From a virus (taxonomy: Duplodnaviria; Heunggongvirae; Uroviricota; Caudoviricetes): a DNA stretch of 64,000 nucleotides. The position numbers and the translations under genes are program-made. Location: IMG/VR virus record IMGVR_UViG_3300035494_000066; one strand, 5' to 3'. Numbering within the stretch: the first letter of the stretch is position 1; each line of letters begins with the position of its first letter. The notes beneath the pieces are model-generated. The model was not told the DNA's origin. It ran no database searches and worked only from the letters and a program-made list of their open reading frames with translations. Below are positions 60,020-64,000 of this stretch, in pieces.

Positions 60020-60751
60020 TTACTTAGTTTGTGCTGGTAGAATGTATTCGTATGTTGCGTAAGCCGACTCAACAACGATCATTGCAGCGCCTTCGTCTGA
60101 AAACTTCATTGTAATTTTGCCCAGAAGGCTTAGGATTGAAAGGACTTGCTGGATAGGCCATGACCAGCTTCGAGTAAGTGTACCTGCTACATCATGTTGG
60201 AATACAAAGTTACCGGCGTGTGTCGAGTGGTCGCCGAAGTAAAACACAAGGTTGTTGTTTTCAACTCGTGCTACAAACGTTAGTTCTTCCGAGTTAGCCT
60301 GAGCCTGGAACTTGAGACGCTGAATACTAGCTTGGCTTGGTTCTAGTTCAACACCCCAGCGCACACCTTTAAACTTAACAGTTTTGAGTTTTTCTTCAAC
60401 AATTTGCTGACTCATGAAGCGATAGTCGTTTTTAAAGTCACCTTCTTTGTTTTCAAAGTGTAACCCAACCGGAACAGTAGTTCCTTCGCGATTCTGTGTA
60501 GCAGTAGTGATCTTTGCGCCTTCTCGGTATACCGGAAGATCGAGCAGAATGTTAAGTTTTTGTAAGTTCGGCATGCCGAACGTAGCATCAAACTCCGGAA
60601 TTTTGTTATTGAAATTAGCTTGCACAATAACACTCCGATCATCGGACATAGCCGAGACGTTCGGTTCACCGTCTTTATTGCTAACCTTAATAAGGTCAAT
60701 GAAACCGAGTTTGTGGGTGTGTTGTACAATGTCTAGTAGGTAATCGCGCAT
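60020..60751 (-). CDS. Putative DNA polymerase sliding clamp
   Basis: 243 aa, clamp-sized alpha/beta protein; AMSDDRSVIV resembles the PCNA N-terminal strand and YEYILPA resembles clamp C-termini; near the polymerase. Confidence 0.6.
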   Translation of the reverse strand: MRDYLLDIVQHTHKLGFIDLIKVSNKDGEPNVSAMSDDRSVIVQANFNNKIPEFDATFGMPNLQKLNILLDLPVYREGAKITTATQNREGTTVPVGLHFENKEGDFKNDYRFMSQQIVEEKLKTVKFKGVRWGVELEPSQASIQRLKFQAQANSEELTFVARVENNNLVFYFGDHSTHAGNFVFQHDVAGTLTRSWSWPIQQVLSILSLLGKITMKFSDEGAAMIVVESAYATYEYILPAQTK

Positions 60752-60754
60752 TAA

Positions 60755-61618
60755 TTAGTCTTCTCCATGGTTTATGTGGCCCAAAGTTTGGGCAGCTCTA
60801 TTCGTTTTTAAGACACCTTGCTTTTTAACAATAGCGTAGCTTAAATTCGGATTATGATCTGTTAGTTCTATTATATCTAATTTAGACTCCGCTGTCAACT
60901 GTTTAATCATGTCATCGGTACAAAAACTTCGCATTGTGTGTTCTGCTAAAACGCAGCTTTCGTATACATTACAGTTATTGTATGTAAAAATAAATGTTCC
61001 CCCGGGTTTTAATAGCGATTCTATTTTAAATAACGTATTTCTAATCTGATTTATATCACAGAACTCAAAGTAACCGATCGAAACAGCTGTACCAAACTGT
61101 CCGACGGGTAGATCATTTAAGTTATTATACAGCCTAATACGCCTTTTGTACACAGGATTAAACTGATCCCGTATACGAGTGAGTGTTAATTTAAACTTCG
61201 AAACCATATATAGCGGGTCAGCAGCTAGCATTTTATTAGTATAAGTACCGAGTACTGGCTCGTAATACAACGCAGGGTGCTGCCAAGAGCAATTTATGTT
61301 TATTTTTTCTGCTAGAATCTGATGAATTGTAGTTGCATAGTCGACATAGTCGAGCTGCTTGTATACTGTAGTCGGATTGTTAAGATCGGAAGAGAATCCG
61401 GTTAGTGTTATAGAGTCCCGGAGTGCAGCAAGTCTTTTCTGTTCGGCACAAATTTCTAAATCAACATCCGCAATTGCTGCCGAGAGCTTACTCAGACTAT
61501 TTGTGTCAGGTATAATACCTGTCACTGCTGCAGTTAACGCGTTAACTGCAGCAGTGACTTCTGTGGTATTAATTGCGTTTATCGAATTTAGTTTTAAAAC
61601 GTAGTCGCTTCGTTTCAT
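60755..61618 (-). CDS. Class I SAM methyltransferase-like protein with N-terminal coiled coil
   Basis: LPVGQFGTAVS...LLKPGGTFIFTY; motif I degenerate; start taken at ATG 61618. Confidence 0.5.
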   Translation of the reverse strand: MKRSDYVLKLNSINAINTTEVTAAVNALTAAVTGIIPDTNSLSKLSAAIADVDLEICAEQKRLAALRDSITLTGFSSDLNNPTTVYKQLDYVDYATTIHQILAEKININCSWQHPALYYEPVLGTYTNKMLAADPLYMVSKFKLTLTRIRDQFNPVYKRRIRLYNNLNDLPVGQFGTAVSIGYFEFCDINQIRNTLFKIESLLKPGGTFIFTYNNCNVYESCVLAEHTMRSFCTDDMIKQLTAESKLDIIELTDHNPNLSYAIVKKQGVLKTNRAAQTLGHINHGED

Positions 61619-61631
61619 ATGCACTACTCTA

Positions 61632-62618
61632 TTAGAAGTCGAACAAAGAATCGAAGGTTGATGCAGTATCAGTGAGTTCTCGTAAACCCCAATTAAGCAC
61701 ACCGAGTAAGTTGTCTACTTTTTGGTCAACAATTGCAGTTAGCATAGCAGCATCGTCGAACGGAAGTTCTTTAAACCATGATGGCAAATGCGGTTCGTCA
61801 ATTGGATATGCAATTGACGTCAGACCAATTGGATTTGGTTTTAGTTTGCACACGATAGTCTTTTGCCCGTCCATAATCGGCATACTGTAATTATCTGCAT
61901 TCATCCGGCGCAACATGTTCCAATTAATTGCTGCTCGCACATGTCCAGGTACTGTTCCTTTTTTACCAGAATTCACCTGATTTGTGAATTTTGTTAAGTT
62001 GTTAACCCGCTTTGGTGTGCCTTTGTGCCACGACGGCTTACTTTTAAAGTTGACTTTAAAGTCACGGATTTTTTCAGCAATAGACTCAGGATCTTTACCG
62101 ACCAAACAGTCCTCGAGGATTTCTTTAAGAAACTCTTGCATGTAGTCCGGAGTGTCACTGCGCTTAAGATCAAGCCCCATTGCTTTAATTTTACCCGGCT
62201 TGCCGCCGACGTCGACACGTTTCCCTTCGTCGTCAATTACAAGCAATGCATATCGTTTCTTCTTTATAAAAATGCCGGACTCAGCTACAACTTCGCGCCC
62301 GCACTTTACAATTTCACCAAACGATTTTGGACAGTTAAATGCTCGTTTCATGAAGCTCGGGAAACTATCACTTACTTGGTCGCCGATTTGATCATACAAT
62401 GCAATTGCAGTGTCTTTGTTCCATTCCATATCACCTGCAGCTACAGCAGCTTTTACTGCGGGCCAGGCACTGAAGTAACAAGAGTCGGTGTTATGAACAA
62501 GGATACCGTTTGCAAAAAAATACGGGTCTTGTTCCTTCATACTTATGTCGTATACATACTCTTCGGTTTCGCCGATGCACTCGACACTAGTTACTTGTTG
62601 TCTTTCGGTTTGAGCCAT
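61632..62618 (-). CDS. Family B DNA polymerase C-terminal part fused to a split-intein C fragment
   Basis: 43-aa IntC, then TDSCYF (DTDS motif), KKKRYA, KAMGLDLKRSD, HVRAA, terminal FDSLFDF; own RBS AGAGGA. Confidence 0.92.
   Translation of the reverse strand: MAQTERQQVTSVECIGETEEYVYDISMKEQDPYFFANGILVHNTDSCYFSAWPAVKAAVAAGDMEWNKDTAIALYDQIGDQVSDSFPSFMKRAFNCPKSFGEIVKCGREVVAESGIFIKKKRYALLVIDDEGKRVDVGGKPGKIKAMGLDLKRSDTPDYMQEFLKEILEDCLVGKDPESIAEKIRDFKVNFKSKPSWHKGTPKRVNNLTKFTNQVNSGKKGTVPGHVRAAINWNMLRRMNADNYSMPIMDGQKTIVCKLKPNPIGLTSIAYPIDEPHLPSWFKELPFDDAAMLTAIVDQKVDNLLGVLNWGLRELTDTASTFDSLFDF
62490..62618 (-). mobile_element. Split intein C fragment (IntC, 43 aa)
   Basis: Block F YVYDISM, block G FFANGILVHN, followed by Thr+1. 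Confidence 0.92.
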
Positions 62619-63553
62619 TCTTTACATTCCTCTAATACAGCAGTAGGGTCATCGATATAATCCTGTTCCCATACTACTAATGTTTCTATATTGCGCTCTT
62701 CTAGTAGCGCATCTATTTTAGCTGTGTCTTGCATCCACTTGTCGCGAGCAATAGTATCAGTGCACCTGTTGTAGTAGTTCTCTTCATATATAGCAGGGTT
62801 ACTGTGCCAATAGTCGCCGTTAAATTCGATTGCCCGGTTGTTATGAACTACATCGTAAAAGTACGGTCGGTTGTTAGTCGATGACCAGATACAATACTGC
62901 TTAGTCCTGCATGAAAAGTCTAAGCTAGTTTTTAGCATCTCTTCGAGCCGTAAGCAAAAACTTTCCTCTAGCGCACTAATTGAATGTCTATTAGTATGCA
63001 TTGCTTGCGATATAGCCAACGCGTCGTCGATGCTGCAATTATTCCGCTTCATTATAGTCTCAATACTGTGACCTTTTGCGCGGTTTAATTCCTTGTACTT
63101 GTCTTCTCCCATTTCGCCGTACTTTTCGACAAAATATGTTAGAGTATTTGTATATGCTTGTCTAGCCTTGTACTCATTCCATCTTCGTAAGCCGTCGGTT
63201 TCTCCGTGCTTGTTAATCATGGATTCTAGTGTTACAGCTCTGCTTTTGTTAAACTTGTTAAATTGCTCCTCAGTCCACCTGTGCTTTTTGCGTTTGTATT
63301 CTAAGGAATTAGATTCTGCTTGCTTAGCTTTATACTCGTTCCAGCGTTGTGTCCCTTCTTCTTCGCCGTACTTAGCAATCATATTAGCTTTAGTGACGCC
63401 TGTTCGCTTAGCGAGATCAGCGTCAACTAAAATTGCTCCCGGGTATGCAGCTTTGTACTCTGTGCCATTGTTAAATCGACCAGAGCAGTTGTATTTAAAG
63501 TGTGTCCATTGTAAGCGGCTTGCTTCGTAGCCGCACTCCTTACATTTTGGCAT
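62591..63553 (-). CDS. Free-standing Vsr-like (PD-(D/E)XK) putative homing endonuclease
   Basis: C-terminal S..E...YD...IEFNGDYWH...D..K...VVWE; N-terminal CxxC and three K(Y/H)GE...G repeats; different frame from both polymerase halves. Confidence 0.8.
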   Translation of the reverse strand: MPKCKECGYEASRLQWTHFKYNCSGRFNNGTEYKAAYPGAILVDADLAKRTGVTKANMIAKYGEEEGTQRWNEYKAKQAESNSLEYKRKKHRWTEEQFNKFNKSRAVTLESMINKHGETDGLRRWNEYKARQAYTNTLTYFVEKYGEMGEDKYKELNRAKGHSIETIMKRNNCSIDDALAISQAMHTNRHSISALEESFCLRLEEMLKTSLDFSCRTKQYCIWSSTNNRPYFYDVVHNNRAIEFNGDYWHSNPAIYEENYYNRCTDTIARDKWMQDTAKIDALLEERNIETLVVWEQDYIDDPTAVLEECKEWLKPKDNK

Positions 63554-63579
63554 ATGGTGCTATCTCCTGTCTCCATAAA

Positions 63580-63586
63580 TATTTAT
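63580..63586 (-). promoter_or_regulatory. Possible late promoter ATAAATA for the endonuclease
   Basis: Minus strand aATAAATAtttat upstream of RBS GGAGACAGGAG and the ATG at 63553. Confidence 0.5.
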
Positions 63587-63744
63587 TATATCAAAAAACA
63601 ACTAAATATTGATATGAAACAAGATGAAATTGCTGATATCATAAAACGTTACGACATAGCTATGTAGGAGACTGCTAATGCACGGAGCATTTGCGGAAAT
63701 AGTAGCACGTATCTAAACGTGCAGAAGCAGTCGAAACGGTAAGA

Positions 63745-64000
63745 TCAATTGATCCCCGAAACCGTAATAAGTAAATCCCCTGCTACTAGTTCAGCTGGTT
63801 TGACTTCTAGTGTAAAACCATCTCGGTCAACAATGACGCTATGATCTTCTGTTACAGTAACAGTTGACCCGTCTTGACTCGTCACTTTGTACAGTTTCTT
63901 CTTAGCTTTGTGTCGCATTACATACGCCATTTCGCCATAAACCGAAGTATCTTCAAACGCATTATACCCTAGTGCTTTAATCGGTTGACCGTCTGTGCCA
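63745..64000 (-). CDS. 3' end of the presumed polymerase N-terminal gene, encoding the split intein N fragment (runs off the window)
   Basis: Frame open to the window edge: GTDGQPIKALGYNAFEDTSVYGEMAYVMRHKAKKKLYKVTSQDGSTVTVTEDHSVIVDRDG...KPAELVAGDLLITVSGIN-stop; block B TxxH. Confidence 0.85.
   Translation of the reverse strand, partial: GTDGQPIKALGYNAFEDTSVYGEMAYVMRHKAKKKLYKVTSQDGSTVTVTEDHSVIVDRDGFTLEVKPAELVAGDLLITVSGIN

Follow-up and report, generated by a model that had tools for sequence, protein, structure and literature searches.

The 64,000-nt stretch analysed here (the window) belongs to IMG/VR virus record IMGVR_UViG_3300035494_000066 (Caudoviricetes) and corresponds to positions 200,413-264,412, read on the minus strand, of one linear viral contig of 302,518 bp (C1), with a CheckV completeness of 85%. 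A locus at the high end of the window, on the minus strand, very likely encodes the replicative family-B (T4 gp43-like) DNA polymerase (PolB) of a ~300-kb uncultured jumbo phage in the form of a fractured gene, consisting of three co-oriented pieces (A, B, and C) with a homing-endonuclease-like gene in each gap (HEG1 between A and B, HEG2 between B and C), and with the catalytic motif C restored by a split intein. The upstream part of the locus lies beyond the window edge; the flanking DNA was fetched as C1:190,413-204,412 (L002), where the genes are on the plus strand and where a window position equals 74,001 minus the L002 position. A preliminary description of the window had proposed a fractured PolB with a split intein at region I and an endonuclease gene between the halves, and this part stands; its division of the polymerase into two pieces does not, since there are three, along with a second endonuclease gene.

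Comparison with PHROG 262 (full-length PolB, 856 positions) showed that piece A covers positions 12-489, piece B positions 498-579, and piece C positions 577-849, while Pfam assigned exonuclease and PolB domains to piece A and a PolB domain to piece B. Piece A comprises the exonuclease domain, motif A, and the first fingers helix. The extein portion of piece B (117 aa) comprises the second fingers helix and motif B (KKINLNSLYG) and extends up to ..ESVIYGD, after which intein block A (SVTGDSMIYL, with Ser1) begins; the frame upstream of the window edge is therefore a PolB ending in YGD and block A, as had been anticipated. All three pieces are full-length, and every PolB motif is intact. Uninterrupted relatives (~60% identity) read ..IIYGDTDSVYF.. 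in one frame, and pieces B and C are colinear with uninterrupted homologues, which is the mark of fractured genes according to Dassa et al. (2009). Neither a second PolB nor a PolA was found in the 302-kb record, which is 85% complete; the lack of any other polymerase in this incomplete record is suggestive of the fractured PolB being the working polymerase of the phage.

The break between pieces B and C is occupied by the two halves of an intein, a 128-aa N-terminal half (IntN) and a 43-aa C-terminal half (IntC). The open reading frame (ORF) of piece B enters the window from its edge and ends in VTVTEDHSV..ELVAGDLLITVSGIN with a TGA at 63747-63745, and a separate ORF, with a ribosome-binding site (RBS) of its own (GAGGA, 9 nt 5' of the ATG), begins with IntC and continues directly into TDSCYF. 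HEG2 overlaps the latter ORF by 28 nt (62618-62591), so that the IntC start codon lies inside the HEG2 3' end, and the ORFs of piece B, HEG2, and IntC-piece C are in three different frames. This arrangement of the ORFs had been noticed in the window and was confirmed. With the junction marked by a slash, the N-terminal junction reads ..VIYGD/S-VTGDS.. and the C-terminal junction ..ILVHN/TDSCYF; because the N-extein ends in ..YGD and the C-extein starts with TDS.., the spliced product would again contain the PolB motif YGDTDS. The Pfam intein profile (155 positions) was matched in complementary halves, positions 2-94 by the piece B ORF and positions 120-155 by the IntC ORF.

Conservation of the intein residues was assessed in a set of 22 piece-B and 6 piece-C relatives with 42-62% identity. 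Residues S118, H191, T211, and H214 of piece B (Ser1, His74, Thr94, and His97 in intein numbering) are invariant among the piece-B relatives, and YVYDI and N43 of IntC are invariant among the piece-C relatives. R190-H191 corresponds to the NX motif (K/R)-His, which was reported to be specific to Ser1/Ser(Thr)+1 inteins (Pasch et al., PMC10189870). The residues by which the class 1 cysteine-independent Ser1/Ser(Thr)+1 subgroup was defined (PMC10189870) are all present, namely S118, T44 of piece C at position +1, T211/H214, H42-N43, and R190-H191, and all of them are (nearly) invariant. No Cys occurs in IntN, and the only Cys of IntC is located away from the junction. The best solved relative of IntN is 9hth, an intein derived from that of phage Aes123 (E 1.2e-9), other inteins being weaker matches, and IntN shares 33% identity (tblastn) with the Aes123 PolB1 intein itself. 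The likeness to this intein that the preliminary description had suggested was thus recovered, as was the difference it had pointed out at the junction, which is DTD/S with Ser+1 in Aes123 and YGD/TDS with Thr+1 here.

IntN carries a basic patch, RHKAKKKLYK (+6), and IntC has a net charge of -6. Prediction of the IntN-IntC complex gave a score of 0.78, versus 0.02 for the best control; this mark is reached by 58 of 80 solved complexes but by only 2 of 110 mismatched pairs. The predicted interface is formed by IntC residues 1-43, with a contact agreement of at least 90% between prediction runs and a predicted local distance difference test score (pLDDT) of the partners of 66-70. This interface score may reflect only the likeness of the two halves to solved split-intein complexes, rather than binding by this particular copy.

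The YGD/TDS register with Thr+1 was also found in Klebsiella phage KP13-7, in four IMG/VR contigs, and in two metagenome contigs, and in Salicola phage SCTP-2 it occurs as a contiguous mini-intein. Ser+1 is used by Aes123, the Pseudomonas jumbo phage PA5oct, CP21, LCGC14, and GOM-OPS-1; in all of these except the last, the DTD/S junction is visible in the sequences or in construct flanks. The nearest 120 piece-B-like metagenomic cluster representatives include 97 with Thr+1 and 18 with Ser+1, and most of them are 230-250 aa long, and therefore represent stand-alone piece B proteins. Judged from public sequence data, the Thr+1 register is an abundant natural variant and prevails among the nearest metagenomic relatives. 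On the IntN tree, the register changes 2 times, compared with 18.6 for shuffles, and monophyly of the Ser+1 inteins was not rejected (approximately unbiased test, p-AU 0.88); owing to this separation, the Thr+1 and Ser+1 registers appear to be sister alleles within a single intein lineage. Piece-B relatives of ~395 aa were observed as well (P0137, P0168, P0170, and P0238), with a junction near residue 112, and hence longer inserts after Ser1. Among these, P0238 has a DTD/S junction and the intein start SVTGDT, which is characteristic of the Thr+1 allele, and may represent a recent register shift.

The three-piece layout recurs in metagenome contigs, alongside other states of the locus. Pieces A and B are fused in relatives L007, L008, and L022, where HEG2 is present, and in L006, where the split intein is kept with no endonuclease; both endonuclease genes are lost in L023, and an opposite-strand ORF occupies the A/B break in L024 and L025. 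It is possible, although we remain somewhat doubtful, that the YGD/TDS intein is a distinct allele of naturally split, mesophilic, almost cysteine-free Ser1/Thr+1 inteins. In that case, efficient splicing and orthogonality to the Aes/CL and LCGC14 inteins would be conceivable, and one allele would display every stage of the proposed route of gene breaking: a contiguous mini-intein (SCTP-2), a split intein with an endonuclease (this phage and KP13-7), and a split intein from which the endonuclease was lost (L006 and L023). The four phage PolB split inteins characterised in the intein-engineering literature are all Ser+1, and no biochemically characterised Thr+1 (YGD/TDS) member was found in that literature.

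A Pfam scan of the ORFs of the locus detected no intein motif at the A/B break. The stop codon of piece A and the start codon of HEG1 share the sequence ATGA, and the overlap between HEG1 and piece B is 11 nt long. The break is located at the tip of the fingers, the same place at which the polymerase is broken in gp43A/gp43B1 of Aes123 and in the split gp43 of T4-like Aeromonas phages. The tail of piece A (..IKIPSRLLQ) and the head of piece B are kept among the split forms; in KP13-7 and PA5oct their counterpart is a contiguous insertion, while the fingers tip is short in the other contiguous relatives. This pattern in the alignments suggests that the module made up of the A tail and the B head probably helps piece A to re-associate with B-C.

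The product of HEG2 is 32% identical (E 2e-40) to the 'putative VSR endonuclease' of Aes123 and 33% identical to an ORF of KP13-7, and it has more than 500 metagenomic homologues, many of which are on contigs longer than 100 kb. Pfam gave only chance-level matches for HEG2, and a Foldseek search of its whole AlphaFold model (pLDDT 87.8) against the PDB returned nothing at E 0.001, with Vsr at rank 2 (probability 0.66). Since Foldseek gave no clear match, the fold was seen only in an exhaustive VIA-align search, in which residues 188-320 were aligned with Vsr (1cw0; Z 10.6, root-mean-square deviation (rmsd) 3.6, 116 aligned residues); VIA-align also matched this region with I-Bth0305I (3r3p; Z 9.4, rmsd 2.8, 96 aligned residues) and a DUF559-type protein (Z 9.7). 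A search of the PDB with the profile of HEG2 relatives placed three Vsr entries on top, although weakly (E 0.35), and paired IEFNGDYWH with IFTHGCFWH of Vsr. Residues E243, Y248, W249, and H250 align with F62, F67, W68, and H69 of Vsr, and D234, E243, Y248, W249, and H250 are invariant among HEG2 relatives. According to the structural model and the profile alignment, the C-terminal domain of HEG2 is a Vsr / I-Bth0305I-type nuclease fold, in line with the Vsr-like nuclease of 320 aa named in the preliminary description, and the N-terminal helical region is probably DNA-binding.

HEG1 matches homing-endonuclease PHROGs, and its product is 39% identical (E 6e-130) to a 560-aa 'Hef-like homing endonuclease' of PA5oct. 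Comparison of HEG1 with the HEG2 profile by hhalign (probability 31%, E 5e-4) aligned the nuclease core alone, and a nuclease core common to both proteins is thereby suggested. A paralogue of HEG1, with 33% identity over 297 aa, is present on the minus strand at C1:5125-5970.

Between the stop of IntN and the start of HEG2 lies a 191-nt spacer with stops in all three frames, which is predicted to fold more stably than shuffled sequence (z -4.1). A weak terminator-like hairpin was predicted after the IntN stop, and another predicted hairpin precedes HEG2 (-18.6 kcal/mol, z -2.45 for an 88-nt piece). The 3' arm of the latter, AUGGAGACAGGAGA, holds the Shine-Dalgarno (SD) sequence of HEG2, which is predicted to be paired with upstream sequence, and its loop side carries the late-promoter-like sequence AATAAATA. 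Dassa et al. (2009, PMC2677866) describe hairpins for 15 of 16 leaders of endonuclease genes, frequently containing the late-promoter element TATAAATA, and overlaps of 6-69 bp between the endonuclease and the downstream ORF of fractured genes. The features found here are of the same kind: a free-standing endonuclease ORF, the 28-nt overlap, and a predicted SD-covering hairpin before the start. By analogy, the hairpin matches the translational-control hairpin of fractured-gene endonucleases.

Three polypeptides in the same layout are known from the PolB of Aes123 (GenBank JN377899), where gp43A, gp43B1 with the N-intein, a putative VSR endonuclease, and gp43B2 with the C-intein follow one another. 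In both phages the intein begins with Ser1 and has the NX histidine, a Vsr-like endonuclease is encoded between its halves, and the A/B break is at the fingers tip; the inteins are homologous to each other, as are the endonucleases. They differ in the insertion point, the intein of Aes123 being located two residues later (DTD/S, Ser+1, versus YGD/TDS, Thr+1), and in the A/B break, which holds HEG1 in this phage but no endonuclease gene in Aes123. Moreover, Aes123 is a T4-like phage, while the phage studied here is a ~300-kb jumbo phage nearest to PA5oct/RaK2-type groups (at most 51% identity). The Aes123 PolB1 intein is a characterised tool from which the cysteine-less CL/CLm inteins were engineered.

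A split PolB intein was also published for the Pseudomonas jumbo phages MIJ3 and PA5oct (Imam et al. 2019, PMC6892783), in which, like here, motif C of a jumbo-phage PolB is interrupted by a split intein, the two halves of which flank a free-standing endonuclease gene. However, the Hef-like gene of PA5oct is located between the intein halves, whereas in this phage the Hef-like gene is found at the A/B break, which has no intein, and the gene within the intein is Vsr-like; PA5oct also has A and B in one chain and the DTD/S register with Ser+1. KP13-7 and SCTP-2 share the register and the catalytic residues of the intein described here (YGD/SVT.D... and ...N/TDS). KP13-7 has a homologous Vsr-like endonuclease between the split halves, and the KP13-7 proteins are annotated as hypothetical only. 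In contrast to this phage, A and B form a single chain in both KP13-7 and SCTP-2, and the intein of SCTP-2 is unsplit, with no endonuclease.

Fractured genes, as presented in the accessible part of Dassa et al. (2009, PMC2677866), consist of an IntN-ending ORF, a free-standing GIY-YIG or Vsr-like endonuclease ORF, and an IntC-starting ORF, and are explained by invasion of intein-less genes by endonucleases. The locus shares with them the layout, the overlap between the endonuclease and the downstream ORF, and the upstream hairpin with a late-promoter-like element. No PolB host and no Ser1/Thr+1 intein were found described in that part of the paper, and, unlike the fractured genes it covers, the PolB gene of this phage is fractured in both ways, once with an intein and once without. 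The same source, in its accessible part, cites Petrov, Karam and co-workers for the split gp43A/gp43B of T4-like Aeromonas phages, in one case with a homing-endonuclease gene in the break. The intein-less break at the fingers tip is common to these phages and the one studied here, whose pieces map to the split-half PHROGs 2062 and 1918; as far as that source goes, the differences are that the C-terminal half is here broken again by a split intein and that the A/B break holds a Hef-like endonuclease instead of a GIY-YIG one. The locus is a further, more fragmented example of a published arrangement, which is neither rare nor new.

The assembly of an active polymerase would most likely proceed as follows. 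The intein halves would associate, with the basic patch of IntN facing the negatively charged IntC, and an N-O acyl shift at Ser1 would be followed by formation of an ester to Thr+1, cyclisation of Asn43, and an O-N shift. This would yield a B-C chain of 402 aa in which motif C again reads YGDTDS. Piece A would remain unspliced and would most likely join B-C non-covalently at the fingers tip, like gp43A and gp43B of the T4-like Aeromonas phages. HEG1 and HEG2 would be selfish passengers, spreading by cutting uninterrupted alleles in co-infecting relatives; such alleles, the possible targets, are present in relatives. The harm from the endonuclease genes would be curbed by overlapping start and stop codons and, in the case of HEG2, also by the RBS-sequestering hairpin.

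Several points weigh against this interpretation. The record is a metagenome assembly of 85% completeness, and a second polymerase on the missing sequence or a local misassembly is possible; each intein half alone scores under the curated cut-off of Pfam; the statistics of the hairpin before HEG2 are modest (z -2.45), and the late-promoter match, made by eye, is 7/8. In addition, natural Ser1 split inteins can be inefficient, as exemplified by the ~30% splicing of the Aes intein in vitro. The intein halves could thus have ceased to splice and could act as a non-covalent dimerisation module, giving a three-chain polymerase with the intein left in place. The poor splicing of some natural Ser1 split inteins in vitro is in accord with this option, and this enzyme must in any case function despite an A/B break at which nothing is spliced. 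However, an unspliced intein of ~170 aa would sit at the catalytic centre, between the Asp-bearing halves of motif C, and Ser1, RH, TxxH, the Asp of block F, HN, and Thr+1 are all kept down to 42% identity, although docking alone needs no such conservation; we consider loss of splicing unlikely. It is very unlikely that the polymerase is a decaying pseudogene left after invasion by mobile elements while another polymerase replicates the genome. Two endonuclease genes are indeed inserted within the polymerase gene, and the record is only ~85% complete, but the pieces are full-length with intact PolB motifs, no other PolB or PolA is present in the 302 kb, and the occurrence of the three-piece layout in many independent contigs at 42-62% identity argues for purifying selection rather than decay.

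Group I introns are known from polymerase genes of phages, and Vsr-like endonucleases are also found inside introns, which raises the question of whether a group I intron, frameshifting, or read-through could connect the pieces at the level of nucleic acid, or whether the arrangement could be an assembly artefact. This is extremely improbable, since three of the four boundaries are ORF overlaps that leave no room for an intron core, intein blocks are located exactly at the breaks, the sole spacer has stops in all frames, and an identical architecture exists in isolate genomes (Aes123, PA5oct/MIJ3, and KP13-7). No Rfam intron family was detected over L002 6000-12600 at E values up to 1. A group I intron at either break was rejected as a candidate, Rfam having returned only spurious miRNA-family matches, which were caused by a 38-nt palindrome downstream of the polymerase. 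An IntN-HEG2-IntC fusion through read-through or frameshift was also rejected on account of the spacer stops and the different frames of the three ORFs. The coordinates of the parts of the locus are given in Table 1.

Table 1. Parts of the fractured PolB locus. Positions are those of the window unless L002 is indicated.
Feature	Position	Strand	Length	Description
PolB piece A	L002 6219-7835		538 aa	PolB exonuclease domain and motif A
HEG1	L002 7832-9529		565 aa	upstream of piece B
PolB piece B ORF	L002 9519-10256		245 aa	start equivalent to window position 64482, outside the window
Ser1 codon	L002 9870			equivalent to window position 64131, outside the window; 131 nt past the window edge
PolB piece B, 3' end	63745..64000	(-)		last 84 aa of the 128-aa IntN (NX motif RH, block B TEDH) and TGA
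Spacer, IntN stop to HEG2 start	63554..63744	(-)	191 nt	
Predicted RNA hairpin	63563..63627	(-)		folding prediction
HEG2, free-standing homing-endonuclease-like gene	62591..63553	(-)	320 aa	helical N-terminus and C-terminal domain of predicted Vsr / I-Bth0305I type
IntC-piece C ORF	62618-61632	(-)	328 aa	first 43 aa end in ..GILVHN, then TDSCYF; Thr+1 codon 62489-62487
C-intein	62490..62618	(-)	43 aa	M1..H42-N43; block F VYDIS, block G ILVHN
C-extein (PolB piece C)	61632..62489	(-)	285 aa + stop	from Thr+1 of TDSCYF; rest of palm and thumb; end ..FDSLFDF

The C-terminus of the polymerase (..TFDSLFDF) could, from its sequence, be a clamp-binding tail. The region after the polymerase (window 60020-61700) contains two ORFs, one of 287 aa starting from an ATG at 61618, with no family match, and one of 243 aa assigned to PHROG 12062 (unknown function). 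The palindrome mentioned above is perfect, with 19-nt arms and no spacer, and is located at 61521-61558, 74 nt 3' of the polymerase stop and within the next ORF; it is present in one copy in the window, and none was found in 100 shuffles.

A second fractured gene, nrdA, was observed in this genome outside the window, at C1:47019-50789 (L030 2020-5790), and also consists of three ORFs. The N-terminal part of NrdA (class I ribonucleotide reductase), encoded by an ORF of 548 aa, ends with ..RQSNL/CVTADT (IntN with Cys1), and the C-terminal part (378 aa) follows IntC at the junction ..DVLVHN/CAEIDLP. Between the halves is an ORF for a 328-aa HNH endonuclease, which shares 55 nt with the IntC ORF. 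The Cys at position +1 is presumably the conserved active-site cysteine of the NxCxE motif. The next large ORF 3' of the fractured nrdA encodes 373 aa (L030 6261-7382).

The understanding of how fractured genes work is left unchanged by this locus. According to the literature, cysteine-independent split inteins are very rare tools, and the Thr+1 family, with more than 100 natural variants in public data, offers a pool of candidates that may be orthogonal to existing inteins. If the YGD/TDS intein is indeed a distinct allele, the pathway of gene breaking becomes testable by comparison. For this phage lineage, the fractured state of the polymerase is common and no exception, and an essential replication enzyme seems to tolerate two independent invasions by selfish endonucleases, one of which would be mended by protein splicing at the catalytic motif and the other by re-association of subunits.

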